From assembly GCA_040377305.1 (NCBI GenBank), contig JBEIPA010000014.1, positions 77,780 through 141,779 of the forward strand: a stretch of 64,000 nt of DNA, read 5' to 3'. The notes under the pieces were generated by a model. It was not told the DNA's origin and made no database searches. It saw only the letters and a list, made by a program, of their open reading frames with translations. Shown piece by piece: positions 8,703-25,503 of this stretch. Numbering within the stretch: position 1 is the stretch's first letter; every line of letters starts with the position of its first letter. Source of the stretch: Flavobacteriales bacterium. GTDB lineage: Bacteria; Bacteroidota; Bacteroidia; Palsa-965. The position numbers were made by a program, and so were the translations under genes.

Positions 8703-10106
8703 TTACCCATCCATTCGCACGATACGCGGACTGAACTTTCCTACGATGTCGACTAAATCAACTTGCGCCTCCATCACCTGAAAAATGTCTTTGTACGCAT
8801 GTGGCGATTCATCCAGACCACCACCGATTAACGTCACGTTATTTTCTTTCAGCACAGATTTCATCTCTGCATTCGTTACGTTTTTCATTGCTGCTGTACG
8901 CGACATTTTACGTCCCGCTCCATGAGAAGCAGAGTTGATGGAAATGCTCGCACCTTTTCCGCGTACAATGAATCCCGGTGCAGTCATCGATCCCGGAATA
9001 ATTCCGAGAACGCCTTTGCCGGCAGGTGTTGCACCTTTACGATGCACGATTACATCTTTGCCGTTGAATTTTTCTTTCCATGCAAAGTTGTGGTGGTTTT
9101 CTACCATCGCGATGGGTTCAACACCAAGCGCAGCTGCAATCTTCTCGTGAATTTTGTGATGACACGCCGAAGCATAATCACCAGCGAGATTCATTGCAAG
9201 CCAATACTCTTGTCCTTCCTGAGTTGAAAGATCAAGCCACGCAAGATGTTTTGCTTCCTGCGGCAAACGACATTTCTCCATTGCCACTTTCGTGTAATGG
9301 TTCGCAATCGTTGCGCCAAGTCCGCGCGAACCGGAATGCGACAACAACGCGAGGTATCGACCTAATGGAAGATTGAACTCGTTGTTCTCATCGCTGATAT
9401 CAACAACTCCGAATTCCACAAAGTGATTTCCCGAACCGGATGTTCCCATTTGCTTCACTGCTTTCAGCTGCAGACCTTTCAGCAATGGAATTTCATCGAA
9501 CAACTTTCGGTCAGTCACTTCAAACTCTTTGTTCTCCTTGAACTCTTGTCCTGAACCAAAGAGTGTATTATCCGTAAGCACTTTGTAAAGTCCGCGCGAG
9601 TCGGTGTCGATGATCTCGTGCGGAGTCGGAAAAATACTCAGGCACATTCGGCAACCGATGTCGACGCCAACTCCATAAGGAATAATTGCGTTTTCCGTAG
9701 CGAGTACACCACCGATCGGCAATCCATAACCCTGATGCGCATCCGGCATCAAAGCACCGGCAACTGCAACCGGCAAACGAATTGCCACATCCATTTGTTT
9801 ACGCGCACCATCTTCGATCTGATCTCCACCGTAAATTGCGTAAGATCCTTGTTCGATGCGCAATGCAATTTCGGGACCTTCCGCTTCTTTCGGCTTTTCC
9901 GTCAACGCATCCGCAATCGCAGCGAGGTTCGTGTCGTCGAGATAATCCGCAGGTGCAGCAAGAATATTTTTCAGCATCTCCATCACATCTTCACGTGATG
10001 ATTTGCGGTAATACTTTTCAATGATGTTGAGGGCAATTCCCACAACGCGTCCTTGTTTGTATCCAAGTTCGCGAAGGTGATCTCCGGTGATGTTTAATTT
10101 GTTCAT
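8703..10106 (-). CDS. rtcB: RNA-splicing/repair ligase RtcB
   Basis: MPDAHQGYGLPIGG, VGVDIGC, GSGNHF, HSGSRG, HRKGAT, SASHGAGR, ESPHAYK motifs. Confidence 0.96.
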   Translation of the reverse strand: MNKLNITGDHLRELGYKQGRVVGIALNIIEKYYRKSSREDVMEMLKNILAAPADYLDDTNLAAIADALTEKPKEAEGPEIALRIEQGSYAIYGGDQIEDGARKQMDVAIRLPVAVAGALMPDAHQGYGLPIGGVLATENAIIPYGVGVDIGCRMCLSIFPTPHEIIDTDSRGLYKVLTDNTLFGSGQEFKENKEFEVTDRKLFDEIPLLKGLQLKAVKQMGTSGSGNHFVEFGVVDISDENNEFNLPLGRYLALLSHSGSRGLGATIANHYTKVAMEKCRLPQEAKHLAWLDLSTQEGQEYWLAMNLAGDYASACHHKIHEKIAAALGVEPIAMVENHHNFAWKEKFNGKDVIVHRKGATPAGKGVLGIIPGSMTAPGFIVRGKGASISINSASHGAGRKMSRTAAMKNVTNAEMKSVLKENNVTLIGGGLDESPHAYKDIFQVMEAQVDLVDIVGKFSPRIVRMDG

Positions 10107-10735
10107 TTTACTAATTGTATTTCTTGTGTAACATAAATTCGAGGTTGTTCAACTTTATTTGTTGACTCGAATTTCATAGCGATGATTTCTTCGCAAGCGC
10201 GAGTAATGTGCACAACCATTTCATCGACATTAATATTTAATATCCCGTCTGCACGAAGAATTGTACCTCCACCTTGCGCATGTGAAAACCTGAGTTTGCC
10301 CTTTGGGGCAAAACAGTGAACTAAGCCGCATCGCATTTCATCATATAGATCAAATGTTCCATTGGATTCTGCTTTTAAATACGCTCGATAATCCTTAAGA
10401 GATGCGAGATTCCGAATGGAGCGCTCAAAGTCCTCACGAACAGTGCCCGATTTATCCCAAACTGTTGGGGAATTTTCATTTATACACTTTCCGAAGAATT
10501 CAATTGCCGAACTCATGCAAATTGCCCCGAGCCATGGCGATACTTTAACCACAGCTTGCATTTCGTCAATAAGTACAGTCCGCATAAATTGCTTAGTTGG
10601 AATGGGCATCTGCACAACAAAATGTGATTTATCATCAGTAAAGCCAAAGACAACATTTTTCATTTGTTCATCCGTGAAAAGGTGCTTTCGTTGAAACTCT
10701 TGAAGGATCGATTGAACTGATATTTCTTTCATCAT
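10103..10735 (-). CDS. HEPN-like protein (R-X4-H motif), stop overlaps rtcB start
   Basis: DLYDEMRCGLVH; ATGA overlap with rtcB. Confidence 0.6.
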   Translation of the reverse strand: MMKEISVQSILQEFQRKHLFTDEQMKNVVFGFTDDKSHFVVQMPIPTKQFMRTVLIDEMQAVVKVSPWLGAICMSSAIEFFGKCINENSPTVWDKSGTVREDFERSIRNLASLKDYRAYLKAESNGTFDLYDEMRCGLVHCFAPKGKLRFSHAQGGGTILRADGILNINVDEMVVHITRACEEIIAMKFESTNKVEQPRIYVTQEIQLVK

Positions 10736-10773
10736 GATTATTCTATACTAATCAATTTACAAAATTTGTTTTG

Positions 10774-10844
10774 ACGACCGACAGGGATTCGAACCCCGAT
10801 CCTCAGATTCGTATTCTGAGATTCTTCCGTTGAACTATCGATCG
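10774..10844 (-). tRNA. tRNA-Arg(ACG)
   Basis: Cloverleaf; TCAGA-ATACGAA-TCTGA anticodon arm; GGTTCGAATCC. Confidence 0.85.
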
Positions 10845-10876
10845 AAATACAGTGTCGGGATACGATCCCGACACCT

Positions 10877-11010
10877 CACAGGCAAAAAGCGAAAAGAGAC
10901 TGTTTGCATTGCTCTACCACTGAGCTACACACAACTTTCGCTATGTGGCCGGATTCGAACCGGCGTCCCATGGATTGGAAGTCGAAGTAACTCTTTTCTA
11001 CGGCACTGTT
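10877..11010 (-). ncRNA. Y-RNA-like RNA A (YrlA-like, circularly permuted tRNA cargo)
   Basis: Scaffold TGCCGTA-GAAAAGAG-TTACTTC...CTCTTTTC-GCTTTTTGC; T-arm precedes GAAA-capped acceptor stem, then D-arm. Confidence 0.85.
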
Positions 11011-11015
11011 CATTG

Positions 11016-11089
11016 GGTGTTAGATCGGTTTCGATCCGATTACCTCTTGCTTCACAAGCAAGCGCTCTCCCGAGTGAGCTACAAACACC
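11016..11089 (-). tRNA. tRNA-His(GTG) with G-1
   Basis: CTTGC-TTGTGAA-GCAAG; G-1:C73; atypical T-loop ATCGAAA. Confidence 0.85.
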
Positions 11090-11094
11090 GTGTT

Positions 11095-11178
11095 CAGTAG
11101 GCAGTTTGGCAGTAGTGCAGTTGGCAGTCAAAATATAATTCTCTGACTGCCTACTGCCCAACTGCTTACTGCCTACTG
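11095..11178. repeat. REP/REPIN-like GCAGTAG-unit inverted repeat
   Basis: Tandem cagtaggcagt units facing actgcctactg units; other copies 12557-12642, 18606-18676, 18865-18946, 19126-19201, 55773-55852. Confidence 0.85.
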
Positions 11179-11184
11179 TTCTTG

Positions 11185-11258
11185 TACTCTGTGTGGGATT
11201 CGAACCCACGTGATCTGGTCGAAAACCAGATATACTAGACCAACTATATGAACAGAGC
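11185..11258 (-). tRNA. tRNA-Glu(TTC)
   Basis: TCTGG-TTTTCGA-CCAGA; GTGGGTTCGAATCCCAC. Confidence 0.85.
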
Positions 11259-11343
11259 CTGATTGATTTGCGGATGACGCGCCGGGTTCTCTCCTTTGGA
11301 GAGTTAGAGAGGCGCGGCGCGTAATCCGCAAATCAATCTTCAG

Positions 11344-11417
11344 TCGCGACAGCAGGATTCGAACCTACATCTTCTCCAGTCCAAGTGGAGAGGCTTAGCC
11401 AATTAGCCGACCTCGCG
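11344..11417 (-). tRNA. tRNA-Pro(TGG)
   Basis: CTCCA-CTTGGAC-TGGAG; C1-G72, A73. Confidence 0.85.
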
Positions 11418-11505
11418 ATGTTGATTAGCTGATTTTTAATTTCTGATTTCTGATGCTGAAAGGTGTTACCCCAAGAGCTAATCAAAAATCAGCTAATCCT
11501 ATTTA

Positions 11506-11612
11506 TTGTGAGGAAAAAATCACAGAAAAGACGAAAGCGCCATCTTTCGATGTCAGGATTCGAACCTGTTTCTTCCTGCCACGAAGTATCTCTTCTGTTA
11601 CGTCACTCACAA
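11506..11612 (-). ncRNA. Y-RNA-like RNA B (T-arm plus mini acceptor hairpin cargo)
   Basis: TTGTGAG/CTCACAA terminal stem; TGACGTA-ACAGAAGAG-ATACTTCG; CAGGTTCGAATCCTG; CATC-GAAA-GATG. Confidence 0.8.
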
Positions 11613-11639
11613 ACTCAAAGAACAAATTCAATTTCAAAA

Positions 11640-11734
11640 TAAGCGGGCAAAAGTCAATCAGAGTCTGCCGGGATTTGAACCCGCGTCTTTCGACTTTCTA
11701 CCAAAGAAGTATCTCTGATTTACGGCACCGTTTA
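11640..11734 (-). ncRNA. Y-RNA-like RNA C (T-arm, tmRNA 3'-end-like cargo)
   Basis: TAAACGG/CCGCTTA stem; TGCCGTA-AATCAGAG-ATACTTC...CTCTGATT-GACTTTTGC; GACGCGGGTTCAAATCCCG. Confidence 0.8.
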
Positions 11735-11744
11735 CTTTTAACTA

Positions 11745-12272
11745 TTATCTCGTCGGGATCTTCAATCCCATTTTCTTCATCGCAAGCAATGCTTCTGCAT
11801 TTCCGATTGCGTCGTTGACCGGGTTGTGATCATGACGCGTTTTGCGAAACAATCGCTTCCACTCGCTGTTCAGTCCTCCATCCATTTTCATTCCACAATA
11901 CAGATCACCGATTCGTCTGCCTGAAAATCCAAACGGATTTTTTCCCAGGTAGAAATGGAAGTAATAATTAATCCACTGCCAATCGAACGCGAGGTTATCG
12001 CTGATGAATATTGCTTTGCCGTCGGATGTTGCGTTCAACCATTCGGAGAAACGTTTCATCACTTCGGCGGGCTCCTCGAACGACTCGTGTTGCCCGCGTG
12101 TGAAACCACTTACTGCAAGTGCATCCGGAATCCATTCTTTGGAAATTGGTTGCGTCTTTCCGTAGAATGTTTTCGCGAGTGTGGGTTCTATCACCACTGC
12201 ACCGAAGCAAACCATCGAATATTTATTTGGGATGGGCCCATCGGCCTCTACATCCACTACTATGTAACTCAT
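11745..12272 (-). CDS. DEDD 3'-5' exoribonuclease (RNase AS/Rv2179c-like)
   Basis: VDVEADGP, DNLAFDW, HNPVNDA motifs. Confidence 0.85.
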   Translation of the reverse strand: MSYIVVDVEADGPIPNKYSMVCFGAVVIEPTLAKTFYGKTQPISKEWIPDALAVSGFTRGQHESFEEPAEVMKRFSEWLNATSDGKAIFISDNLAFDWQWINYYFHFYLGKNPFGFSGRRIGDLYCGMKMDGGLNSEWKRLFRKTRHDHNPVNDAIGNAEALLAMKKMGLKIPTR

Positions 12273-12304
12273 TTTGTTTTTGTTTTTAATCAATTTAATA
12301 ATTT

Positions 12305-12377
12305 AAGCTGGCAACAAACTCGCAGAGGTTTTGGTCTAATTAACAGTTAGAAGTAACTCTGCAATACGGCACAGCTT
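12305..12377 (-). ncRNA. Y-RNA-like RNA D (isolated Asn anticodon stem-loop cargo)
   Basis: AAGCTG/CAGCTT stem; TGCCGTA-TTGCAGAG-TTACTTC...CTCTGCGA-GTTTGTTGC; TCTAA-CTGTTAA-TTAGA. Confidence 0.8.
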
Positions 12378-12435
12378 GCCGATGTGCCGATTTCCAATAT
12401 GCCAATATGCCGATTGGAAATACCTCAATAAAATT

Positions 12436-12553
12436 CGGAAGCAAAAAACGATTCGGGTGGGGCGTCGCAATGAGGATTTGCACCTCTTCCTGGTTTTTAC
12501 ATCAGGACCCTTGCCCCCTGTCGAGCGAAGTATCCCGGCTCTACGGCATTCCG
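12436..12553 (-). ncRNA. Y-RNA-like RNA E (D-armless tRNA-like cargo)
   Basis: CGGAA/TTCCG stem; TGCCGTA-GAGCCGGG-ATACTTCG...CCCGAATC-GTTTTTTGC; GGGGC/GCCCC stem with two hairpins. Confidence 0.75.
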
Positions 12554-12556
12554 TTT

Positions 12557-12642
12557 CAGTAGGCCGTTTGGCAGGCGTTCAGTAGGCAGTCAAAATTTAT
12601 TCCTAATGACTGCCGACTGCACTACCGCACTACTGCCTACTG
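12557..12642. repeat. REP/REPIN-like GCAGTAG-unit inverted repeat
   Basis: Same unit family as 11095-11178. Confidence 0.8.
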
Positions 12643-12647
12643 ATTAA

Positions 12648-12867
12648 ACAACGGTAACTGGCAACAAGTCTGCTTTCTGCTTTCACAGAATACGGCCGTC
12701 CTATTTCTGTATTGCTACAGACAGTTGACTGGTAATCATCATCCGCATGGTGTCAGGATCTGAAATCCTGATACTGCGCACTCAGATTAACGTTCGCGAA
12801 CCACAGTTACCCGTGCATCACTACCTTAGGACCGTTATCGAAGTATGACCCGTTTACGACACGTTGT
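12648..12867 (-). ncRNA. Y-RNA-like RNA F (about 220 nt, 23S rRNA H69-like cargo)
   Basis: ACAACG/CGTTGT stem; TGTCGTA-AACGGGTC-ATACTTCG...GACTTGTT-GCCAGTTAC; contains ATAACGGTCCTAAGGTAG. Confidence 0.75.
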
Positions 12868-12987
12868 GTGATGTCAGGATCCTATCCTGACAGTGCACAT
12901 AATTTTTTCAAAGAACGTTTGTACTAACCAAGCCGTCGGGCGACCTCTCCTTCAGTGCAATTTCCGAAGGAGAGGCGTAGCCGTAAA

Positions 12988-14502
12988 CTACAACTCGAGT
13001 TGTTTTATCATCGCGATTGCATCTGTACCGTTTTCTGCAGCATACAATACGTCGAACACTTTATCTGACCAGCCCGCGATGAGTGTTACATCGTCGCGCT
13101 GCACACTGATTGGTGTGTTACCGTAACCTGCGAGGTCGAACAAGTACAGTTTCGCCATTGGCGCAATCTGTTTGTATTCTTTCCACGCCGTCTGCAACGA
13201 ATCACCGTCAGCTTTGGTATTCCACATCTGGCAGTCAGTGAACATCATCACTTTGTCCATCACAACATTGCGCTGAACAAGATCTTTGATCACCAGGTAA
13301 CCATTTGTGGCGTAACCAACTTCACCTTCCCGCTTGTAGTACTCATCAACATTCGCAAGTACTCCACGGTTAGGCATGTTGATTACCTTCCAGCGATCTC
13401 CGAACATTCCGGAAACCACTCGTTCACACTTGCTCTGCATCAGCATACCCAGTACCAGACCGATATCGAACAAATACACTTTGCTCTTCGCCGAGATTGG
13501 TTTCTGCATTGAACCCGAAACGTCACACGCAATCAACACACGTGTTTTGTAATCGAATCCGCTGATGTTTTTCGCTGAAGCTACAATTGCATCTTCCAGC
13601 GCGTTAAGTATCATCGACACGTAATCAGCTTTCAGCACTTTCACTTCACGGTATGCAGACAGGAAACGGAATGGCAACTGCTTCGATTTCGCAACCTGGT
13701 TTGCATCAGAAAGCGTATCACACACTTTTTTGATTGCATCCCATGATACACCCGCTTCAATCATGTTACGGATGTTACGCAACATCGCCATGTATCCCAG
13801 CTTACCGCTGAAGATCAGTTCTTCCCATTTCGCACGAACCGCAAGCTCTTTTGCTTTTGCATCAGCGAATTTTTGCTGACCCAAAGCAGAAAGTTCAGTT
13901 TCCCAGGTATAAGCAACAGACAGCTCTTTCGCAGCGATCTTGTTGAAGACTGCTTGCTGTTCATCACTTTTCGCTTTCGGGTGAACAAGGAACAATGCAT
14001 CACGCAACGTTACTGCCGCTTCACGGTTGTATTTCGAGAACTGGTATTCATCAAAACGATTGAACGCCTTTGCGAGTCCTTTCTGTACCTGTTTCGAAAG
14101 CTTGTTCAGTTTCTTAGTTCCCGAACGGTTGTTCGCCAGTTGGTAGTAAGCCAGAAGCTCAGTGATCTCATCAGCACGCTGAACGACACCGTTCACCGCT
14201 TTGGATACAACTATATTTCCGGAGTTACGTTTTGCAAGTTCGACTGCAAGCACCTGTGGAATAGAACGCATGTACATTTTGTTACGTGCATACACCGCAA
14301 GCTTCGCCACGAATTCAGCATCTGTCTTCTCCATGAGATCCACGATACGTTGAAGACGCTCGTTTCCTTTCTCATAGAACGAATCGCTCAGTCCTGCGGT
14401 TACTACCGCTGAATACAGTTCGAGCTCAGGAGTCATTGCGAATGCTTTTGCGCCTTCGTAATTAGTGACTGCTGTTTTACGTTTGAAGATGTTGAATTTC
14501 AT
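12988..14502 (-). CDS. Ro60/Rsr TROVE-domain RNA-binding protein with vWA domain
   Basis: NYEGAKAF N-terminus, LRDALFLVHPK, AMLRNI, LPFRFLSAY, DVSGSM (MIDAS), FTD. Confidence 0.93.
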   Translation of the reverse strand: MKFNIFKRKTAVTNYEGAKAFAMTPELELYSAVVTAGLSDSFYEKGNERLQRIVDLMEKTDAEFVAKLAVYARNKMYMRSIPQVLAVELAKRNSGNIVVSKAVNGVVQRADEITELLAYYQLANNRSGTKKLNKLSKQVQKGLAKAFNRFDEYQFSKYNREAAVTLRDALFLVHPKAKSDEQQAVFNKIAAKELSVAYTWETELSALGQQKFADAKAKELAVRAKWEELIFSGKLGYMAMLRNIRNMIEAGVSWDAIKKVCDTLSDANQVAKSKQLPFRFLSAYREVKVLKADYVSMILNALEDAIVASAKNISGFDYKTRVLIACDVSGSMQKPISAKSKVYLFDIGLVLGMLMQSKCERVVSGMFGDRWKVINMPNRGVLANVDEYYKREGEVGYATNGYLVIKDLVQRNVVMDKVMMFTDCQMWNTKADGDSLQTAWKEYKQIAPMAKLYLFDLAGYGNTPISVQRDDVTLIAGWSDKVFDVLYAAENGTDAIAMIKQLEL

Positions 14503-14547: not shown

Positions 14548-14571
14548 TCTACGCAATGGTCTTGCGCAGTT
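14548..14571. promoter_or_regulatory. Putative WYL-regulator operator upstream of Ro60 gene
   Basis: TCTACGCAATGGTCTTGCGCAGTT, 20/24 identical to reverse complement of 15709-15732. Confidence 0.75.
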
Positions 14572-14655
14572 CGATTTATTTTAACTTTTTGTTTTAATCG
14601 CCTGATTTTCAGTTGGCATTAATTCGTTTTTTCAATCGCAACATTTATTGCGGCG

Positions 14656-14728
14656 TTGGAAAGGAAGGGCTCGAACCTTCGACCTTGTGCGTATAAGGCA
14701 CGTGCTCTTACCACTGAGCTACTCTCCA
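14656..14728 (-). tRNA. tRNA-Ile(TAT)
   Basis: CGTGC-CTTATAC-GCACA; canonical D and T arms; A73. Confidence 0.85.
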
Positions 14729-14735
14729 AGTCTTG

Positions 14736-14807
14736 CGGCGCGGATTGGACTTGAACCAATATAATCTCCCTTAACAGGGGAGAGCTCTACCATTGAGCTA
14801 CCAGGCC
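14736..14807 (-). tRNA. tRNA-Asn(GTT)
   Basis: CTCCC-CTGTTAA-GGGAG; G73. Confidence 0.88.
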
Positions 14808-14812
14808 ATTTG

Positions 14813-14885
14813 CGGTAACGATGGGATTCGAACCCACAACTTTCCGATAGACAATCGGACGCTCTAGCCGTTGAACTACGCTACC
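14813..14885 (-). tRNA. tRNA-Asp(GTC)
   Basis: TCCGA-TTGTCTA-TCGGA; G73. Confidence 0.88.
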
Positions 14886-14890
14886 ATTTG

Positions 14891-14963
14891 TGGACAAGGA
14901 AGGAATTGAACCTTCATCTTCTGATCTTCAGTCAGCCGCATTCACCGCGTTTGCTACCTGTCC
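14891..14963 (-). tRNA. tRNA-Phe(GAA)
   Basis: CTGA-CTGAAGA-TCAG; A73. Confidence 0.82.
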
Positions 14964-14969
14964 GTTTTG

Positions 14970-15043
14970 TTGACCCACCAGGGCTCGAACCTGGAACCCC
15001 CACTTTAAAAGAGCGGTGCATCTAACCATTGAGCTATGGATCA
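14970..15043 (-). tRNA. tRNA-Lys(TTT)
   Basis: CCGCT-CTTTTAA-AGTGG; A73. Confidence 0.85.
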
Positions 15044-15055
15044 ATATTTCTTCGC

Positions 15056-15111
15056 TTGTCCTCCTTCGGCAAAGCCTGTGCTGAGCGAAGTCGAAGTGCT
15101 CAGTCTGACAA
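15056..15111. repeat. REP-like element (CTGAGCGAAGTCGAAG family); partner arm at 15201-15232
   Basis: ctgagcgaagtcgaag versus cttcgactacgctcag flanking tRNA-Gln. Confidence 0.65.
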
Positions 15112-15115
15112 GTCG

Positions 15116-15186
15116 TTGTCGGAAATGGATTTGAACCACTATAGCCAGATTCAAACTCTGGTGTCCTACCATTAGACGATCCGACA
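15116..15186 (-). tRNA. tRNA-Gln(TTG)
   Basis: CCAGA-GTTTGAA-TCTGG; U1-A72. Confidence 0.85.
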
Positions 15187-15231: not shown

Positions 15232-15262
15232 ATAAAAAAACCCGGTCGTGTGCGGACCGGGT
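15232..15262 (-). terminator. Attenuator terminator 2 (directly before tRNA-Gln)
   Basis: ACCCGGTC/GACCGGGT stem followed by T-run. Confidence 0.85.
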
Positions 15263-15285
15263 CTAACAAATCAGTTCAACTGATT

Positions 15286-15375
15286 TCAGTTATGACAACA
15301 TCGGTCCACGAATTTTCCTTTCTGAAAATCTCGTTCGCTAAAATTGGGCAAGGCTATATAACTATGTTTCTTCAT
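15286..15375 (-). CDS. Leader peptide MKKHSYIALPNFSERDFQKGKFVDRCCHN (29 aa)
   Basis: Translated by hand; its GTGGACCG can pair with terminator arm CGGTCCGC. Confidence 0.7.
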   Translation of the reverse strand: MKKHSYIALPNFSERDFQKGKFVDRCCHN

Positions 15376-15473: not shown

Positions 15474-15504
15474 AATAAAAAAGCCCCGAATCTCTCCGGG
15501 GCTT
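15474..15504 (-). terminator. Attenuator terminator 1
   Basis: AAGCCCCG/CGGGGCTT stem followed by T-run. Confidence 0.85.
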
Positions 15505-15528
15505 TACTTCAGTTATATCCTAAAGCAA

Positions 15529-15606
15529 TTACACCCCGTGCAACAGACGATCTCCTTCGAGATTTATCTGTTTGCGTGTTTGCGGATATGTAAAATGCTT
15601 TTTCAT
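15529..15606 (-). CDS. Leader peptide MKKHFTYPQTRKQINLEGDRLLHGV (25 aa)
   Basis: Translated by hand; its CGGGGT can pair with terminator arm GCCCCG. Confidence 0.7.
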   Translation of the reverse strand: MKKHFTYPQTRKQINLEGDRLLHGV

Positions 15607-15708: not shown

Positions 15709-15732
15709 AACTGCGCAAATACATTGCGCAGA
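15709..15732. promoter_or_regulatory. Putative WYL-regulator operator (autoregulatory)
   Basis: CTGCGCAA-N5-TTGCGCAG perfect inverted repeat just upstream of WYL gene. Confidence 0.75.
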
Positions 15733-17881: not shown

Positions 17882-18514
17882 ATGAAAATCATAGCCATTT
17901 CAGATACACACGGTCAGCATGGGAAGGTTGTGCTACCGGAAGGTGATGCGATTATTCACGCTGGTGATGTTTCCGTACGTGGAACTGAATCGCAGATCGT
18001 CGATTTCATCAACTGGTTTTCGGGACTGAACTATCGGTACAAGATTTTCATTGCGGGCAATCATGACTTCTTCTTCGAAAGAGAGTCACAGGAGAAAATC
18101 AAATCTCTGATTCCCGAGAACGTTATATACCTGAACGATTCCGGTATTGAACTAGAAGGAATCAAAATCTGGGGCTCGCCGATTCAACCCTGGTTTCAGG
18201 ACTGGGCGTTTAATCGGCAGAGAGGAATTGATATTCGTAAACACTGGGACATGATTCCGGGTGACACGGATATACTCATCACTCACGGGCCAGCGAAAGG
18301 AATTCTCGATCGCTTGGTTTACGGAGAAGAAGTTGGTTGTGTTGATCTTCTTGACGCGGTTAACAGAATCAATCCCGCCTTTCATGTCTTCGGCCACATT
18401 CATGAAGGATACGGAGAGCATCAAGAAGGGAAAACTAAATTCATTAACGCTGCCGTTCTCAATGAAGATTATTTCCTCGCGAATTCACCAATAGCATTTG
18501 AGTTCCTAAAATAA
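17882..18514 (+). CDS. Metallophosphoesterase (MPPED/calcineurin-like)
   Basis: SDTH, HAGD, AGNHD, THGP, FGHIHE motifs. Confidence 0.92.
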   Translation: MKIIAISDTHGQHGKVVLPEGDAIIHAGDVSVRGTESQIVDFINWFSGLNYRYKIFIAGNHDFFFERESQEKIKSLIPENVIYLNDSGIELEGIKIWGSPIQPWFQDWAFNRQRGIDIRKHWDMIPGDTDILITHGPAKGILDRLVYGEEVGCVDLLDAVNRINPAFHVFGHIHEGYGEHQEGKTKFINAAVLNEDYFLANSPIAFEFLK

Positions 18515-18515
18515 G

Positions 18516-18601
18516 TTGGGTAGGCCGGATTCGAACCGACATGTTTAGCACGTGGCAGCAGATTTACAGTCTGCCCCCTTCACCAGTTTGGATACTACCC
18601 A
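18516..18601 (-). tRNA. tRNA-Tyr(GTA) copy 1
   Basis: GCAGA-CTGTAAA-TCTGC; long variable arm. Confidence 0.88.
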
Positions 18602-18682
18602 GTTTCAGTAAGCAGTTGTGCAGTTGGCGGTATCATAATTTGACTGCTTGCTGCCAGGCTGCACTACTGCCTACTGTTTCAG

Positions 18683-18765
18683 CGGAAGATATAGGAGTCG
18701 AACCCTGTCCTTTCGGACCGCCCCAGATTTCAAGTCTGGTTGACCACCATCGGTCGCTATCTTCC
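18683..18765 (-). tRNA. tRNA-Ser(TGA), imperfect T-stem
   Basis: CCAGA-CTTGAAA-TCTGG; variable arm; G73. Confidence 0.75.
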
Positions 18766-18773
18766 AATAATTG

Positions 18774-18861
18774 CGGAGAACATTGGAATTGAACCAATAG
18801 TTCACTTTCGCGAACGCACATTAGCAGTGTGCTGCAACGAGCCAATAGTTGCCTGCTCTCC
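18774..18861 (-). tRNA. tRNA-Ser(GCT)
   Basis: GCACA-CTGCTAA-TGTGC; long variable arm; G73. Confidence 0.85.
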
Positions 18862-18952
18862 TTACAGTAGGCAGTTGGGCAGTCGTTCAGTAGTCAGTCA
18901 AGTATTTTTTTGACTGCCTACTGCCAAACTGCATTACTGCTTACTGGCAAAG

Positions 18953-19026
18953 TACTCCGAAGCAGATTCGAACTGCTACTTAACGGGGCTTAACGCCGTT
19001 GTCTCTTCCAGTTGGACTACCGGAGT
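18953..19026 (-). tRNA. tRNA-Leu(TAA) lacking long variable arm
   Basis: ACGGC-GTTAAGC-CCCGT; 5-nt variable loop; A73. Confidence 0.75.
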
Positions 19027-19035
19027 AAAAATTAG

Positions 19036-19121
19036 TTGGGTAGACAGGATTCGAACCTGTACGTTTAGCACATGGCAGCAGATTTACAGTCTGCCCCCTT
19101 CACCAGTTTGGATACTACCCA
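19036..19121 (-). tRNA. tRNA-Tyr(GTA) copy 2
   Basis: Near-identical to 18516-18601. Confidence 0.88.
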
Positions 19122-19208
19122 GTTTCAGTAGGCAGTAAGCAGTTGTGCAGTTGGCAGTATCATAATTTGACTGCTTACTGCACACTGCACTGCTGCCTAC
19201 TTCTTTCG

Positions 19209-19281
19209 TAGCGATAAAGAGATTCGAACTCTTACTGAACGGTTTCTAAGACCGTTGCCTCTGCCGTTGGGCTACATCGCT
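19209..19281 (-). tRNA. tRNA-Leu(TAG) lacking long variable arm
   Basis: ACGGT-CTTAGAA-ACCGT; 5-nt variable loop; A73. Confidence 0.82.
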
Positions 19282-19340: not shown

Positions 19341-19375
19341 AAAAACAAAAAGCCTCCTGATGTTTTCAGGAGGCT
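19341..19375 (-). terminator. Attenuator terminator before Leu/Tyr/Ser tRNA cluster
   Basis: AGCCTCCTGA/TCAGGAGGCT stem followed by TTTTTGTTTTT. Confidence 0.88.
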
Positions 19376-19400
19376 CTCGTATACTGTATGATATTACAGA

Positions 19401-19481
19401 TTACACAATACAATCCTCCCTGTCATTCGTGAGTGAATAACTGCTCAATAAGAGGAGAGAATATGTGTTTACTGTTTTCAT
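19401..19481 (-). CDS. Leader peptide MKTVNTYSLLLLSSYSLTNDREDCIV (26 aa)
   Basis: Run of 11 Tyr/Ser/Leu codons; CAGGGAGG complementary to terminator arm CCTCCTG. Confidence 0.8.
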   Translation of the reverse strand: MKTVNTYSLLLLSSYSLTNDREDCIV

Positions 19482-19727: not shown

Positions 19728-20426
19728 ATGGCTATTTCAAGAAAATACGGCCGTACATACCATTATCCATTTTCTCCCGGAACTACAAGCGATGATCGCA
19801 TCAGCCACGACTACTGGAATGATGTGACAAAAATTGCTTCGCTGATTCACACGGAAAAACTGGACGGTGAAAACAATTGCCTTAATCGTTATGGTGTTTT
19901 TGCGCGTTCGCATGCGGCCCCATCGCAATCGCCGTGGACGGCATGGTTGCGTGAACGTTGGGAGTTACTGAAACATGATCTCGGTGATCTGGAAATATTC
20001 GGCGAGAATCTTTACGCAATACATTCAATCGAATACGCGAAGCTGGAAAATCATTATTATGTTTTCGGTGTGCGGCGCGAAGATCATTGGTTGTCGTGGG
20101 AGGAAACTAAGTTCTATGCGAGTATGCTGGACTTTCCGACTGTACCTGAGATTCAACTTATTTCGACACCCATCGACCGGAAAGTATTCGAAGCCGATGT
20201 GCTTTCGATTGTTTCGCAGGAAAGTAAAATGGGAAGCCTCGATGCTTTCACCGGCAAAGTCTGCACGATGGAAGGAATTGTAACCCGCAACACCGGCGAA
20301 TATGCCGTAACTGATTTCGCGCATCATGTTTTCAAATACGTGCGAAAAAGTCACGTGAAAACAGATGCACACTGGACACGTAACTGGAGAAGATCAAAAC
20401 TGATCTGGGAACGAGCCGGCGACTAA
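19728..20426 (+). CDS. ATP-dependent RNA ligase family protein
   Basis: KYGRTYHYPFSPG, TEKLDGEN (KxDG), FGENLYA, EGIV, FKYVR. Confidence 0.88.
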   Translation: MAISRKYGRTYHYPFSPGTTSDDRISHDYWNDVTKIASLIHTEKLDGENNCLNRYGVFARSHAAPSQSPWTAWLRERWELLKHDLGDLEIFGENLYAIHSIEYAKLENHYYVFGVRREDHWLSWEETKFYASMLDFPTVPEIQLISTPIDRKVFEADVLSIVSQESKMGSLDAFTGKVCTMEGIVTRNTGEYAVTDFAHHVFKYVRKSHVKTDAHWTRNWRRSKLIWERAGD

Positions 20427-20444: not shown

Positions 20445-21557
20445 ATGTTTATGTGGACAATTTCGGATATAAAGCAATGGCAAACGCTCTACGACAAGTT
20501 CGACTGGGTGCGCGATATGCGTGGCGTTCCCCAGGATCGCGTGCATCATGCAGAAGGTGATGTGGAAGTACATACGCGCATGGTACTTGATGCGTTGGAA
20601 AATCTTCCAGACTATCAGCAACTGAATGAACAGGACAGAGAAATTCTTTGGGCTTCTGCTTTGCTGCACGATGTAGAAAAACGATCAACTACTATTCACA
20701 ATGAAGACGGACGTATATCTTCTCCCAATCACGCAAAAAAGGGTGCAGCTACAACGCGCAGTTTGTTGTACCGCAACATTCCCGCACCGTTTCATATTCG
20801 CGAAGCTGTGGTGAAGCTCGTGCGTTATCACGGCTTACCGCTGTGGGTATTCCATAAACCTGATCCGGCAAAAGCGCTAATTGCGGCAAGTCTTTCCGTG
20901 AATACGCATCACCTTAGTCTGCTCGCTGAAGCAGATGTGCTTGGAAGAGAATGCGCGGATCGTAATGAACTTCTTTATCGTGTGGAAATGTTTCGGGAAC
21001 TATGCAAAGAACAGCTCGCGTATGGAAAAGCAAAATCCTTTCCATCTGAACTCAGCAAGATGAACTATTTCCGGAAAGAAGACGGTTCGCCGGACTATGA
21101 ACCATTCGACGTTACGCAATGTGAAGTAGTTTTACTTTCAGGTTTGCCGGGATCAGGAAAAGACAATTATCTGCGGAAATATCTGAAAGAGTGGCCGGTG
21201 GTAAGCATCGATGACATTCGAAAGAAAAATAAAATCTCCCCGACGGATAAAAAAGGAAATGGCCAGGCGATACAGATGGCGAAGGAACAGGCGCGAGTAT
21301 ACCTGCGAAGCAAAACTTCATTCGTGTGGAATGCAACGAACATCACGCGATCTATGCGAGGGCAGTTGATTGATCTGTTTCTCACTTACAAAGCGAAAGT
21401 GAAGATCGTGTACGTAGAGGTTCCTTACGCCACATTGCGTAGACAAAACCGCGAACGTGAACACGTGGTTCCGGCAGCTGCATTGGAGAAATTAATCGAT
21501 AAGCTGGAGGTTCCAACGCCGGACGAAGCGCATGAGATCATATATGAAATAAAATAG
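20445..21557 (+). CDS. HD phosphohydrolase fused to P-loop polynucleotide-kinase-like domain
   Basis: HHAEGDV..HT, LLHDVEK, GLPGSGKD, WNATN. Confidence 0.88.
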   Translation: MFMWTISDIKQWQTLYDKFDWVRDMRGVPQDRVHHAEGDVEVHTRMVLDALENLPDYQQLNEQDREILWASALLHDVEKRSTTIHNEDGRISSPNHAKKGAATTRSLLYRNIPAPFHIREAVVKLVRYHGLPLWVFHKPDPAKALIAASLSVNTHHLSLLAEADVLGRECADRNELLYRVEMFRELCKEQLAYGKAKSFPSELSKMNYFRKEDGSPDYEPFDVTQCEVVLLSGLPGSGKDNYLRKYLKEWPVVSIDDIRKKNKISPTDKKGNGQAIQMAKEQARVYLRSKTSFVWNATNITRSMRGQLIDLFLTYKAKVKIVYVEVPYATLRRQNREREHVVPAAALEKLIDKLEVPTPDEAHEIIYEIK

Positions 21558-22204: not shown

Positions 22205-22226
22205 AACAACCACAATTCTGAGCTGT

Positions 22227-23000: not shown

Positions 23001-23008
23001 AATTATTG

Positions 23009-23623
23009 TCAGAGCGGCTCGCGTATTATTTTACCCGCATTTCCCCTCTGCAACGAATGGTGCTCCAGCCATTGCGACCTTTGTTGCGCGTTCAATTCAT
23101 CGACATGCATACCGAGCAGTTTATTCTTCAAACGTTCAGTAGCTGCTTTTTTATTCAACATCTGCGAACGTTCCTCTGAAGCCGTAACACTGATTCCGCT
23201 TGGAACATGCGTAGCACGAACTGCTGATTCCGTTTTGTTCACATGCTGTCCACCGGGACCTGATGCGCGCATGGTTTGATACGTAACGTCTTTCTCTTTC
23301 CATTCAGGAAAAACGGATACATCATAAACGTGGATGCCCGCAAACCAATTTTTTCGTTTGTGGTTTTTCCGGAACGGACTCTGCGCAATCCACTGCACGG
23401 TTCCTTCCCACTCTATATAGAACGAAGACACGTTTTCTCCTCTGATCCGGATCAGTGCCGACAACAACGTATCATCCGGCTTCCCGGGAACAAGCTCAAT
23501 GATTTCCACACCGAGCTGTTCCCGTTCTGCCGCTTTCGTAATCTTCTTAAGAAGAAGCGCCACAACTCTTTCGCATTCTGCCGGACCTTTGCCGGAAGTT
23601 ATCTGCATGATTTTTTCTTTCAT
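23009..23623 (-). CDS. prfH: Peptide chain release factor H
   Basis: QITSGKGPAEC, GTVQWIAQSPFR..HKRKNWF, SGPGGQHVNKTESAVR. Confidence 0.95.
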   Translation of the reverse strand: MKEKIMQITSGKGPAECERVVALLLKKITKAAEREQLGVEIIELVPGKPDDTLLSALIRIRGENVSSFYIEWEGTVQWIAQSPFRKNHKRKNWFAGIHVYDVSVFPEWKEKDVTYQTMRASGPGGQHVNKTESAVRATHVPSGISVTASEERSQMLNKKAATERLKNKLLGMHVDELNAQQRSQWLEHHSLQRGNAGKIIREPL

Positions 23624-23628
23624 CGTTT

Positions 23629-25035
23629 CTATTCTTTATTCATGCGTACAATCTTCGGCGTAAACTTTCCGTGAACCTCCACGAGATCCTGCTGTGCCTT
23701 CATCACGTCATCGATGTCTTTGTATGCAAGAGGCGATTCTTCAGAACTTCCTCCGACCATCGTTACATCTGCAGCATTCAGCATTTGTCGTAATCCGGAA
23801 TTCGTAATAGATTCCTTCGCTTTTTTACGCGACATTTTTCTGCCCGCTCCATGCGAAGCAGAGTTTAGTGATTCCGGAACTCCTTTGCCACACACGAGAT
23901 ATCCACCGTGAATCATGTTACCAGGAATAATTCCAAGCTCGCCTTTGTGCGCCGGCGTAGCACCTTTACGATGAACAATCATCTCTGCTCCATCTTCCAT
24001 CGTCTCTTTCCATGCAAAGTTGTGATGATTCTCTACTTTCGCAACTGGTTTAATTCCGAGTGCACGAGAGAGATTGATGTGAATCCTGTCGTGACACGCT
24101 TTCGCGTAATCGCCTGCAAGATTCATACTCAGCCAATATTCCTGTCCTTCCGCGCTGGTGAGATCAAGCCACGCCATGTGTTGTGCATTGCGCGGAAGCT
24201 TGCACACGTCCATCGCAACATCCGTGTAGTGCTTTGCGATTGTTGCACCCAATCCGCGTGAACCGGAATGCGACAAGAGTGCAACATAATTTCCTGCCGC
24301 CATGCCCAGTGTATTTTCCTCATTGAGTTCAATCACACCAAACTCTACGAAGTGATTTCCTCCACCCGATGATCCCAGCTGTCTGACTGCTTTACCATGC
24401 AATTTTTTCAGCAGTTGCGTTTCATTGAACGACGGATCATCAAGCACATCATGATCCTGCGCGAATTCCAGACATCCTTCCATTCCGAAGTGCGTGTAAT
24501 CTTTCAGCGCCATTTTCAATTCGTGCCGGTTATGTTCAAGATACTTTTCCGGCAAATCAAAAATGGAAAGCGCCATGCGACAACCAATGTCAACACCAAC
24601 TCCAAATGGAATTACTGCATTCTCCGCAGCAAGCACACCTCCAATCGGCAAACCGAATCCGCTGTGCGCATCAGGCATCAGCGCTCCTCGTCTGCTTACC
24701 GGTAAGCTCAACGCAATTTCCATTTGCTGAATTGCTGAGTACTCGATGTGTTGACGTCCGTAGATTTTCACCGGAGCCAACTCGCTGAGCAATTCATGCG
24801 TGCGATACTTTTTGTCGGGTAATCTTTCCATGAACGTAGACGCCAGTTTCGACAACACTCCATCGCCCAGAAATTCTTCCGGATTTGCTTTCACCTCACA
24901 GAACAATTTCAGCACCTCTTCCTTTGCAGTGTGCTTGAAATGTTGCGACGCGATGATCACTGCCAGACTTTTCGATGTATTGTGATGAAAGCCCATGCGA
25001 TCGAGATCTTTACTTTTAACTTTATTCTTACTCAT
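23629..25035 (-). CDS. rtcB: RtcB-family ligase coupled to PrfH (second copy)
   Basis: MPDAH, GVDIGC, GNHF, HSGSRG, HRKGATP, SHGAGR; likely start MSKNKV. Confidence 0.93.
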   Translation of the reverse strand: MSKNKVKSKDLDRMGFHHNTSKSLAVIIASQHFKHTAKEEVLKLFCEVKANPEEFLGDGVLSKLASTFMERLPDKKYRTHELLSELAPVKIYGRQHIEYSAIQQMEIALSLPVSRRGALMPDAHSGFGLPIGGVLAAENAVIPFGVGVDIGCRMALSIFDLPEKYLEHNRHELKMALKDYTHFGMEGCLEFAQDHDVLDDPSFNETQLLKKLHGKAVRQLGSSGGGNHFVEFGVIELNEENTLGMAAGNYVALLSHSGSRGLGATIAKHYTDVAMDVCKLPRNAQHMAWLDLTSAEGQEYWLSMNLAGDYAKACHDRIHINLSRALGIKPVAKVENHHNFAWKETMEDGAEMIVHRKGATPAHKGELGIIPGNMIHGGYLVCGKGVPESLNSASHGAGRKMSRKKAKESITNSGLRQMLNAADVTMVGGSSEESPLAYKDIDDVMKAQQDLVEVHGKFTPKIVRMNKE

Positions 25036-25192
25036 TTGTTTCTTCGTTGTTGAATTTAAGTTCTTTGAATTCTCTTCCCACTGTAAGCCGAATCCGTTGC
25101 TTCTCCTCTTGTGTCTTTCGGATCTGAGTTCTTCTTCGTTTTGTTCTGAACCTTCCGGACAAGACATAGGAATCCCATGTGGCTGTTGCCAT
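25028..25192 (-). CDS. Small Arg/Lys-rich protein (54 aa), stop overlaps rtcB start
   Basis: MATATWDSYVLSGRFRTKRRRTQIRKTQEEKQRIRLTVGREFKELKFNNEETNE; A-rich start context; ATGAGTAA overlap. Confidence 0.6.
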   Translation of the reverse strand: MATATWDSYVLSGRFRTKRRRTQIRKTQEEKQRIRLTVGREFKELKFNNEETNE

Positions 25193-25344
25193 TGTTTTTT
25201 GTTGTGTTGAATAAACAGTGAATTATTCCGATGAATCAGAAGACCTGCAAATGCAACCACGGGCCACAGAAATTCTGTAGTTAGTCAGCGCCGACTATGA
25301 AAACTTTATTCGTAAAAAATGGAAATAGAATTCAAAGCCGCGCT

Positions 25345-25389
25345 TTACGCGGAGAACTGCAGAGGTGATATGTTCGCTTGTTCTTTCAT
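25345..25389 (-). CDS. Putative leader peptide MKEQANISPLQFSA with perfect Shine-Dalgarno
   Basis: TAAGGAGG at 25396-25403, 6 nt before ATG; promoter-like TTTG-N21-CATATTTG at 25432-25464. Confidence 0.6.
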   Translation of the reverse strand: MKEQANISPLQFSA

Positions 25390-25503
25390 GATGCTCCTCC
25401 TTACTTGTTAGAAGAGATTTGAATTCTGTGGCAAATATGATGAAATAAATAAATCACTTCCAAATTTATTTTCATAAAATAATTTTGGAAGTGCGTGGAC
25501 TCT

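Follow-up and report, generated by a model that had tools for sequence, protein, structure and literature searches.

The locus that we describe here raises the question of how far two RtcB RNA ligases, a Ro60 protein, six predicted Y RNAs and 16 tRNA genes, gathered at 8703..25464 of a 64,000-nt window of Flavobacteriales contig JBEIPA010000014.1 (the whole stretch analyzed; positions below refer to it, with the strand as + or −), act together against RNA damage, and what the Y RNAs add. Its sequence shows a Ro60-RtcB unit for RNA repair with a WYL gene at its flank, and the cluster is a genuine bacterial RNA-repair gene set of a known kind; the new part is its Y RNAs. The reading that we favor, tentatively, is that the Y RNAs of this unit are toxin baits carried on one stem, while the ligases repair and the spare tRNAs replace damaged RNA.

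The Ro60/Rsr protein (12988..14502, −; 504 aa) comprises TROVE (106 bits) and vWA domains, and the RtcB gene linked to it (8703..10106, −; PF01139) stands last in the Ro60 unit, with a terminator behind it (8664-8690). A second RtcB (23629..25035, −; PF01139; 468 aa from the ATG at 25035) is linked to PrfH (23009..23623, −; 204 aa), which has GGQ and matches TIGR03072 (252 bits; cut-off 167). Both RtcB copies, which are 51% identical, keep all metal and guanylylation motifs; the PrfH-linked copy is a paralog of the other and fails the model TIGR03073 (139 bits; cut-off 272) for RtcB2, the family that the earlier note brought in alongside PrfH. The start of this RtcB is overlapped by a small basic ORF (25028..25192, −; 54 aa) with homologs in loci L031 and L012, and RtcB-PrfH is preceded by a 14-aa leader peptide and hairpin (25338..25389, −), a similar peptide being present in L031. 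The rest of the claimed inventory was recovered by profile matches: a DEDDh 3'-5' exonuclease, Rv2179c-like (11745..12293, −; PF16473), a calcineurin-like metallophosphoesterase, also a PADLOC PDC-S10 hit (17882..18514, +), an Rnl-type ATP-dependent RNA ligase with a KLDGEN motif (19728..20426, +; PF09414), and an HD phosphoesterase fused to a P-loop polynucleotide-kinase-like domain (20445..21557, +; HD and AAA_33). Although the ORF at 10103..10735 (−), whose stop overlaps the RtcB start, has no Pfam match, it does carry the claimed HEPN motif (RX4H), with E78 and R134-x4-H139 invariant in 65/65 aligned homologs; it is a predicted HEPN-type RNase and a strain-specific insert. A scan of 17 ORFs in or beside the interval and of 29 flanking ones (from a list of 38 with at least 150 aa) found, as claimed, no integrase or phage family, and no transposase; G+C is flat. 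The earlier note omitted three further genes of the interval without an obvious role in RNA: a stand-alone GyrB N-terminal-like protein, a passenger (16792..17880, +; profile match), a 183-aa orphan ORF (21653-22204), and a GH25 glycoside hydrolase (22107-23000).

The survey of synteny in Bacteroidetes that the earlier note had suggested was run on 80 Bacteroidota Ro60 loci, 48 of them at least 15 kb long (tblastn, E at most 1e-8). Only Ro60, the Y-RNA array, the WYL regulator (52 loci), RtcB (41) and a palindromic operator (54) are conserved; ligase with HD-kinase (6), PrfH (4), DEDD (3) and phosphoesterase (2) are occasional, and the HEPN, GyrB-like, 183-aa and GH25 ORFs occur in 0/80. Thus, of the proposed integration of repair, replacement and decoy, all the parts are present and the decoy idea gains support from sequence, but one integrated island is an overstatement, since the accessory modules are rarely linked. 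The ligase-kinase, RtcB-PrfH and nucleases are accessory modules gathered here, whose regulation is probably separate.

The HTH-WYL-WCX regulator gene (15767..16795, +; profile match) is divergent from the Ro60 unit. A palindrome, TRCGCAA-N5-TTGCGYA, which is the candidate WYL operator, lies upstream of Ro60 (14550..14568) and at the divergent WYL/tRNA-Ro60 promoter (15712..15730); it is limited to the WYL, tRNA and Ro60 promoters, none preceding ligase-kinase or RtcB-PrfH. Across the survey it was found at most 250 nt upstream of Ro60 (54/80), while control spacers of 4 and 6 gave 0/80. Leader peptides followed by terminators form predicted attenuators at 15480..15606 (−; 25 aa, peptide and spacing kept in relatives), at 15238..15375 (−; 29 aa), and ahead of the third tRNA group at 19348..19481 (−; 26 aa).

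Six predicted Y RNAs adjoin the Ro60 gene, all six motifs on its strand; the earlier note had their number right but missed their displayed cargo, which differs from one to the next on a common covarying stem, or handle. Pairing holds in 91.9% of handle cells over 28 minimal Y RNAs, and both sides vary in 13/15 pairs; this was reached in 0/500 shuffles, and slid controls give 42-54%. Y-motif matches number 343 on the Ro60 strand versus 24 on the opposite one.

There is little doubt that these RNAs mimic parts of tRNA and rRNA, the cargo of the six being one 23S junction (Y1), one bare Asn loop (Y3), one permuted tRNA (Y6) and three tRNA-elbow-like modules. Y2 (12436..12553, −), kept in many relatives, joins the Ro60-type stem to a non-permuted tRNA-like domain (G-rich segment, stem-loop, variant T arm); Y4 (11641..11732, −) has the stem, a D-loop-like segment, a tetraloop hairpin and a T arm, as drawn by eye, its minimum-energy fold being different, and Y5 (11508..11610, −) has the stem, a D-loop-like segment, a T arm and a short hairpin. 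Y3 (12304..12376, −; fold z −2.39) is a minimal RNA of ~70 nt, with the stem and a bare Asn(GUU) anticodon stem-loop. Y6 (10878..11010, −) is a YrlA-type, circularly permuted tRNA mimic with a T arm, a sealed acceptor stem and a D arm, whose Gly(UCC) anticodon loop is identical to the housekeeping loop; the Rfam YrlA model matches only here (10880-10997; 39.8 bits, under the gathering score of 69). An anticodon loop occurs in 79/307 distinct Y RNAs (shuffle mean 14.6, maximum 28 in 1000), and 29/64 short Y RNAs, from 27 loci, consist of handle and anticodon loop only. In 24 RNAs of the permuted tRNA type, the split anticodon stem pairs in 45/48 cells versus 28.5 shuffled (0/5000). Against a function as bait, a canonical anticodon loop is missing from 228/307 Y RNAs.

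Y1 (12648..12867, −) mimics helices 68-71 of 23S rRNA in a shortened, circularly permuted form that is opened at the H69 loop, with 18 nt identical to 23S at 12821-12838; the longest identity to real 23S runs from 18 nt in the window to 27 nt in L057, compared with at most 12 nt in 16S and reverse-complement controls. Upstream 23S segments recur at the 3' end of the 23S-type Y RNA, the H71 tetraloop is at a fixed offset in 23/24 such RNAs, and pairing is raised in H71 (0.97 versus 0.71) and the H68 base (0.94 versus 0.74; both 0/2000); the H69 base gave no covariation signal (1142/2000), and H67 in fixed register did not pass (1633/2000). Folding the single sequence also gives back the handle, the stem of H69 and H71 (z −2.58). 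In the window's Y1, the stretch ahead of H71 lacks 6 nt relative to 23S, and with the H69 loop opened, two well-known functional loops are therefore not displayed, which counts against bait. A second rRNA cargo, the L11-binding region, is present in one Prevotella Y RNA (L020; 67 aligned columns). A variable arm of Y1 holds an inserted genomic REP-like hairpin.

The claimed 16 tRNAs comprise 15 found by ARAGORN and Ser(UGA) at 18684-18765, seen by Rfam (E 7e-4) and by eye. Arg(ACG) 10773-10844, His(GUG) 11015-11088, Glu(UUC) 11184-11258 and Pro(UGG) 11343-11417 (10773..11417, −) are interleaved with Y6; Gln(UUG), Lys(UUU), Phe(GAA), Asp(GUC), Asn(GUU) and Ile(UAU) lie at 14655..15186 (−), and Leu(UAG), Tyr(GUA), Leu(UAA), Ser(GCU), Ser(UGA) and Tyr(GUA) at 18515..19281 (−), where the tRNA-Tyr gene and its spacer are duplicated (109 nt, 92%). 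Housekeeping anticodons are duplicated by 15/16, Ile(UAU) being absent from the housekeeping set, and position 37 is altered in 9/14 relative to housekeeping tRNAs. Taking the housekeeping set of G000 alone as reference, the host base 37 is kept for Asp and Pro in 13/15 Y-RNA loops versus 5/23 array tRNAs, a post-hoc contrast among kin that are not independent. Over all anticodons the contrast is small (array 75/134, Y 42/63), and in 16/16 cases the loop of an array tRNA-Lys(UUU) is that of the host, both of which count against bait.

In our preferred reading, the Y RNAs would be transcribed and processed, Ro60 would likely grip their common stem, and the displayed anticodon loops, tRNA elbows and 23S junction would compete for RNA-attacking toxins; cut RNA would be mended by the ligases and replaced from the spare tRNAs, and translation damage would induce the unit through WYL at its palindrome and attenuator read-through. 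With an acceptor end that is sealed or absent, the mimics cannot be charged and are therefore unusable in translation. This decoy function is somewhat less likely than not, marginally more doubtful than the reading as a whole. Deinococcus Yrn1, the sole Y RNA of known mechanism, is a PNPase tether (PMC4201824), and Salmonella YrlA is described as not cut by anticodon nuclease (PMC7790460, in part), both of which speak against bait.

The tether role of Yrn1 leads to the strongest alternative, which we regard as rather unlikely, that the cargo is an address label by which each Y RNA tethers Ro60 to a host protein recognizing its shape (synthetases, tRNA or rRNA modification enzymes, recycling or splitting factors, RtcB or PNPase), bringing it to damaged RNA in the Ro60 ring. 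What stays invariant in the rRNA mimic is a junction rather than an exposed loop, which favors such a label, and the commonest bare loops, Asp, Lys and Asn, carry anticodons read by class IIb synthetases. A role as RtcB cofactor was also proposed earlier (10.1101/312249, in part). Yet anticodons swap on one scaffold between related genomes (UGA, UGG or UUU in L076, L069 and L058, with G37 accompanying UGG) and repertoires range from 1 to 8 RNAs per locus, so that an arms race, as under the bait reading, fits better than a fixed host partner.

It is improbable that the Y RNAs are a tripwire, in which a nuclease cutting the displayed loop opens the Ro60 cavity or releases a WYL ligand and so turns on the repair unit. 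The WYL gene, divergent in 52/80 loci, and its conserved operator suit this, as do the prediction of WYL domains as ligand sensors (PMC4012209, in part) and the induction of an RtcR-type operon by damaged tRNA (PMC7790460), but the Y RNAs sit behind attenuators within the very unit they must induce, and cleaved host tRNAs could give the signal without mimics.

Still less probable is that the rRNA-type cargo binds small molecules such as ribosome-targeting antibiotics, or DNA-level enzymes, or that the 23S motif is a homing-endonuclease target: H69, like the L11-binding region, is an antibiotic site, and the conserved 23S motif is a known homing site, but the covarying helices argue for a role at the level of RNA, and the idea does not account for the anticodon loops and elbows that the same handle carries. 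Least probable of all, neutral or decaying capture of tRNA and rRNA fragments in an accidental gathering at an insertion site rich in tRNAs, which would suit the patchy distribution (Ro60 in 12/61 genomes), passenger genes, duplicated tRNA-Tyr, REP insertions and an RtcB fragment in L001, is disfavored by compensatory changes in handle and cargo helices, as well as by the conserved operator and the permuted rRNA layout recurring in distant lineages.

Compared with RtcB2-PrfH rescue and repair (PMC9304027, PMC9223846, PMC12829566), an rtcB-prfH pair whose PrfH matches TIGR03072 and has GGQ is likewise found here, but its RtcB fails TIGR03073 and shares 51% identity with the Ro60-linked copy, and PrfH is shorter than the tailed Flavobacteriia subfamily (225-250 aa). 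The tRNA L-arrays, e.g., the Anabaena trn operon (Santamaria-Gomez et al., 2021, PMC8421152), also have supernumerary isodecoders, patchy distribution and an rtcB neighbor, and a sponge role against toxin RNases was discussed for them; in contrast, the tRNAs here fall into three short groups, interspersed with the Y RNAs and Ro60, without an HNH gene, and include Ile(UAU). Phage tRNAs with anticodon-loop changes (van den Berg et al., 2023, PMC10264068, in part) likewise differ there from host tRNAs, whereas ours are chromosomal, beside repair enzymes, and any nuclease resistance is putative.

As in the Ro60/Rsr systems with YrlA and YrlB (Rfam RF02553; Chen et al., 2014, PMC4201824; Wang et al., 2018, 10.1101/312249; both in part), small RNAs lie at most 4 kb from Ro60 on the same strand and have a 5'-3' stem bearing a bulged motif, and Y6 shares with YrlA the permuted T arm, the sealed acceptor stem and the D arm; Chen et al. 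list Bacteroidetes YrlAs, including Chryseobacterium. Here, however, six RNAs share one handle with different cargo, the handle motif is GYCGUA rather than GNCGAA, and the anticodon loop, absent in Salmonella YrlA, is kept in many Y RNAs; stem-loop 'V' of Chen et al. appears to occupy its position. Bare anticodon-loop or 23S-junction Y RNAs were not found in the portions of these two papers examined, nor Y RNAs with such cargo in the literature searched, of partial coverage. The Salmonella rsr-yrlBA-rtcBA operon under RtcR (Hughes et al., 2020, PMC7790460, in part), for which YrlA was suggested as a competitive inhibitor of anticodon nuclease, likewise unites Ro60, Y RNAs and RtcB with a divergent regulator. 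No RtcR or RtcA family match was found among the scanned ORFs of our locus; instead, its regulator is HTH-WYL-WCX, with a palindromic candidate operator and predicted leader-peptide attenuators, and its unit includes spare tRNAs.

The six predicted Y RNAs of the window (Y1 to Y6), which all lie within 4 kb of Ro60 and on its strand, share a terminal stem, here called the handle, on which a tRNA- or rRNA-like part, the cargo, is displayed. Each has at its 5' end a motif of the GYCGUA type, then an 8-bp stem and ACUUC, and at its 3' end the complementary strand; the stem joining the 5' and 3' ends with its bulged motif also appears in the folds of Y1, Y3, Y5, and Y6. Among 80 Ro60 loci, 338 of 352 matches to a loose form of the motif were within 4 kb of Ro60, and 343 matches to a strict pattern in 83 sequences were on the Ro60 strand vs 24 on the opposite strand. 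Once filtered by motif length and freed of duplicates, these came to 307 Y RNAs from 78 loci, each with 1 to 8. Among the minimal members, 28 were picked by hand: 91.9% of their handle cells pair (42–54% in slid controls), and 13 of the 15 pairs change on both sides. The strict motif occurs 33 times in the window's genome, and the 27 matches outside its contig are taken as chance. A search of sequencing runs for 10700–15300 listed none of RNA, which speaks neither for nor against expression. Y6 matched the YrlA family (RF02553) with 39.8 bits (E 9e-7), below the gathering threshold of 69, while the other five had no RF02553 match. A permuted T arm, closed acceptor stem, and D arm are found only in Y6 among the window Y RNAs, and T and D motifs in 99 of the 307 Y RNAs of relatives. 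Long imperfect palindromic spacers separate RNA genes at 11093–11176, 12555–12642, 18606–18676, 18863–18946, and 19133–19200, and recur on other contigs; a second family, of REP-like hairpins (about 14 copies in the genome), flanks the Y array on both sides and also occurs within it.

In 79 of the 307 Y RNAs, ACUUC is followed directly by a stem of at least two pairs with a canonical 7-nt anticodon loop, vs a mean of 14.6 and a maximum of 28 when the first 25 nt were shuffled. Nearly half of the short Y RNAs (29/64) consist of the handle and an anticodon loop alone, of the Asp (11), Lys (5), Trp (3), Thr (2), and Asn (2) types and six singles; Y3 is of the Asn bare-loop type. One scaffold bears swapped anticodons in three relatives' loci (UGA in L076, UGG in L069, and UUU in L058), base 37 following the anticodon as in real tRNAs. 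Viral contigs were scanned for the Asp bare-loop type, and the one match (L148), with neither Ro60 nor a handle, was read as chance. In 24 permuted T+D RNAs including Y6, pre-selected for having an anticodon loop, pairing between the two bases next to the D arm on its 3' side and those that follow the 3' strand of the loop is seen in 45 of 48 cells (28.5 after shuffling, 0/5000). Because this split anticodon stem pairs, we regard these RNAs as tRNAs opened inside the anticodon stem, with the acceptor end sealed and the loop intact. At L047:12223-12330, a Y RNA whose Cys(GCA) anticodon arm lies close to the 3' end is apparently permuted at the T loop, another opening point of the tRNA. Y2, Y4, and Y5 have T arms with D-loop-like segments and were read by eye as elbow mimics.

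The cargo of Y1 is of the 23S type. It shares 18 identical nt with the 23S gene of a compared genome (G048), at position 1925 of that gene; the window's own near-complete assembly contains no 23S. The identity reaches 27 nt in a homolog at locus L057, where 16S and reverse-complement controls reach 12, and the alignment score of Y1 against 23S was 38 (200 shuffles, 29 at most). The sequence is in permuted order, opening with the 3' strand of H69, followed by a shortened H70–H71 and variable arms, and then by segments from further upstream in 23S (H68 base, H68 stump, and H69 5' strand). Of 40 rRNA-type members extracted, 26 were aligned, and 23 of 24 have a GNRA loop at the same fixed offset. 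H71 pairs at 0.97 vs 0.71 when shuffled (12 distinct; 0/2000) and the H68 base at 0.94 vs 0.74 (0/2000), anchored counts for H67–H71 that include two mis-anchored rows, counted as they fell. The H69 base pairs at 0.99 but is near-invariant and therefore uninformative on covariation, and the rRNA-type members failed the pairing test at H67. The H69 loop is opened in the window type and complete in Chryseobacterium types. An rRNA pseudogene was rejected as an explanation of Y1 from the permuted order, the handle, and the covariation.

Fifty loci from a metagenome scan were judged by eye to be about 37 of the rRNA type and 2 true rRNA, the rest being chance; the energy of the end-to-end duplex did not separate Y-like from chance matches among them. 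A Ro60 match lies inside the 2.5-kb flank in 11 of the 50, of which two, at 34% and 41% identity, are distant. No Rfam family was found for the rRNA-type RNA in 15 loci scanned. The H69-type pattern occurs in 1 of 401 genomes of the phylum, namely the window's own, and this class is therefore uncommon. At L108:2075-2553, an H69-type Y-like RNA is directly preceded by a GOLLD RNA on its strand, and locus L126 has a tmRNA nearby. Another part of 23S, the L11-binding (GTPase-centre) region, is carried over 67 columns by a Prevotella Y RNA (L020:9570-9760), the sole case among the loci examined, in which no sarcin-ricin-loop motif was found. We consider it very likely that the Y-RNA cargo is mimicry.

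The island also has 16 spare tRNA genes, 15 with an anticodon duplicated elsewhere in the genome. The unique one, tRNA-Ile(UAU) at 14655–14728 (−), is outside the housekeeping set and could read AUA without lysidine; six such calls were made in the 80 Ro60 loci. Spare and housekeeping tRNAs are 41–74% identical, and base 37 differs in 9 of 14 spare tRNAs. Two tRNA-Leu genes of the array (18952–19026 and 19208–19281, −) are 74–75 nt long, without the long variable arm that the housekeeping copies have. Longer arrays stand between Ro60/Y RNAs and RtcB in two relatives (L008:15297-18936, about 20 calls; L009:1702-5569, about 15), and same-strand tRNAs are absent from 31 of 48 long Ro60 loci. For Asp and Pro, a subset picked post hoc, the host base 37 is kept in 13 of 15 Y-RNA loops and 5 of 23 array tRNAs, while over all anticodons the contrast is small (42/63 vs 75/134), and the Lys(UUU) loops of the array are host-identical throughout (16/16).

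Two mismatch-free copies of the palindrome TRCGCAA-N5-TTGCGYA were found in the window, at 14550 and 15712; the gene of the WYL regulator is at 15767–16795 (+). With up to two mismatches allowed, 54 of 80 loci have the palindrome in the 250 nt preceding Ro60 (0/80 with spacers of 4 and 6). It is a candidate WYL operator. It is absent before the ligase-kinase genes and before RtcB-PrfH in the window, and a single WYL regulon over all modules was rejected from this operator survey. A third operator-like palindrome (one mismatch) lies at position 73351 of the contig, 4.4 kb before the window start. Strong terminators precede the first and third tRNA groups, and short leader ORFs end 23–25 nt before these terminators. 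The first leader is kept with the same spacing in four relatives' loci (L012, L013, L031, and L041), and RtcB-PrfH is preceded by a leader and a hairpin; we read these elements as predicted attenuators.

Every item of the island that the earlier note had described at 8703–25464, from two RtcBs, PrfH, and Ro60 to the RNA ligase and HD-kinase, is present in the sequence. Ro60 matched PF05731 (TROVE) with 106.5 bits (cut-off 23), and its residues 9–496 matched the phage Ro60 structure 9L5Y (E 1e-29); its C-terminal vWA region scored 24.6 bits with PF25045 (cut-off 27.7). Both RtcBs have PF01139 and the metal/guanylylation motifs, and the catalytic motifs of solved RtcB are kept. The proposed RtcB2-PrfH pair holds for PrfH, which scored 252 bits with TIGR03072 (cut-off 167), has GGQ at 124, and adjoins an rtcB; this RtcB fell short of TIGR03073, the release-factor-coupled family, with 139 bits (cut-off 272; Ro60-linked RtcB, 127). 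A basic small ORF of 54 aa at 25028–25192 (−), without a Pfam match, overlaps the PrfH-linked RtcB at its start; homologs of this ORF occur in L031 and L012. Adjacent genes encode a ligase with the motif I lysine, a P-loop kinase, and an HD phosphoesterase, a set predicted to be active in heal-and-seal repair.

In the HEPN-type ORF (10103–10735, −; 210 aa), E78, R134, and H139 are invariant in all 65 aligned homologs, drawn from 150 listed of a family of 179 representatives; these came from an HMMER search, and a word-indexed search gave none. The HEPN RNase motif is a conserved R-x4-6-H with an upstream E. The ORF has no Pfam match, and the 65 members no HEPN Pfam match. Its predicted model (pLDDT 93) gave no Foldseek match at E ≤ 0.001, the top TM-score being a weak one with AbiV (0.32–0.39, E 1.6). 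The DEDD protein (11745–12293) matches a PADLOC exonuclease effector model (E 2e-38), and the phosphoesterase (17882–18514) the PADLOC candidate PDC-S10 (E 6e-93). The earlier note had left out three genes of the interval, all passengers: an ORF like the N-terminal part of GyrB, an orphan of 183 aa, and a GH25 enzyme. The first, at 16792–17880 (+), overlaps the WYL stop and encodes a stand-alone 362-aa protein resembling GyrB's N-terminal half (ATPase/transducer); a search confined to lengths of 199–634 gave seven homologs of 337–375 aa. An ice-binding-like secreted protein (35507–37120, −) and a 2148-aa poly-HAMP hybrid kinase (49321–55767, +) elsewhere in the window are unrelated to these findings.

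Ro60 is patchy, occurring in 12 of 61 genomes including G012, one of those compared (11/60 without it), and in 9 of 26 other genomes of the genus. The synteny survey proposed in the earlier note, made on 80 Ro60 loci with flanks of up to 10 kb (48 loci of at least 15 kb), bore out the linkage of WYL (52/80) and RtcB (41/80) but not that of the other modules, with ligase and HD-kinase at 6 loci, PrfH at 4, DEDD at 3, and the phosphoesterase at 2. The HEPN-type, GyrB-like, 183-aa, and GH25 ORFs were found at none of the 80. The ligase and HD-kinase occur together in 6/6 loci having either; over the 61 genomes, PrfH was matched in 7 and HD-kinase in 5. Locus L031 has both RtcBs, PrfH, ligase, and kinase on the opposite side of Ro60 compared with the window, and such clustering therefore recurs without being the rule. 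In L002:8755-11073 and L010:103-2563, WYL and the phosphoesterase are followed, where the window has the GyrB-like gene, by two ORFs that look like nucleotidyltransferases by their motif. As the earlier note had stated for integrases and phage genes, no mobility genes were present among the ORFs scanned, and a prophage or ICE was rejected from this and the flat G+C.

The most likely reading of the whole, which we hold tentatively, is as follows. Translation damage would induce the unit via WYL and the attenuators; Ro60 would hold and stabilise non-chargeable look-alikes competing for RNA-attacking toxins; cut RNA would be resealed by RtcB and the ligase-kinase, stalled ribosomes freed by PrfH, and losses made good by loop-altered tRNAs. 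Tethering of host enzymes by the Y RNAs seems somewhat less likely, a sensing role of theirs improbable, and a role of the cargo at the drug or DNA level very unlikely. That the Y RNAs are neutral relics is likewise very unlikely, given the pairing in their handles and split stems. Beyond the decoy mechanism, it is conceivable, though rather doubtful, that Ro60 carries, in Bacteroidota and other phyla, a library of swappable decoys, an RNA-based, expandable immunity to ribotoxins in which each cargo names its toxin. If so, the library copies toxin-sensitive sites across the entire translation machinery (single anticodon loops, sealed tRNAs, the 23S H68–H71 junction, and the L11-binding region) and is paired with loop-altered spare tRNAs and ligases. 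An RNA of ~70 nt whose sole cargo is an Asn, Asp, or Lys anticodon loop is predicted to be bound or cut by the matching anticodon nuclease, or to pull down the matching host enzyme, and the ~200-nt permuted H68–H71 RNA would be a natural minimal model of this ribosome junction. Because cultured environmental Bacteroidota carry such arrays, these tests are cheap.

The island belongs to a known kind, of which it is a large example, and its Y-RNA repertoire is provisionally a new variant of Y RNAs with testable predictions, which widens them from tRNA mimics to rRNA mimics. We found no published description of rRNA-mimic or bare-anticodon Y RNAs in an incomplete coverage of the literature, where such descriptions may exist. 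For the adjacency of Ro60 and Y RNAs to RtcB in many bacteria, one account gives only possibilities (PMC7790460). The published bacterial Y RNA motif is GNCGAAN0-1G, whereas the window handles have GYCGUA or GACGUA, off by one position. The Salmonella YrlA structure has no anticodon loop, according to Wang et al. (10.1101/312249), while Y6 and 23 relatives keep one on the split stem. The spare tRNAs resemble the tRNA L-array in being supernumerary isodecoders of patchy distribution, but the L-array is one long uninterrupted tandem and the window has three groups of 6, 4, and 6 genes. The RtcR-regulated rtc operon has a divergent RtcR (a CARF, sigma-54 activator) and RtcA; neither family was found among the window ORFs scanned, and the divergent gene is WYL/WCX instead. 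A phylum without RtcR at these loci gains a candidate WYL operator and predicted attenuators.
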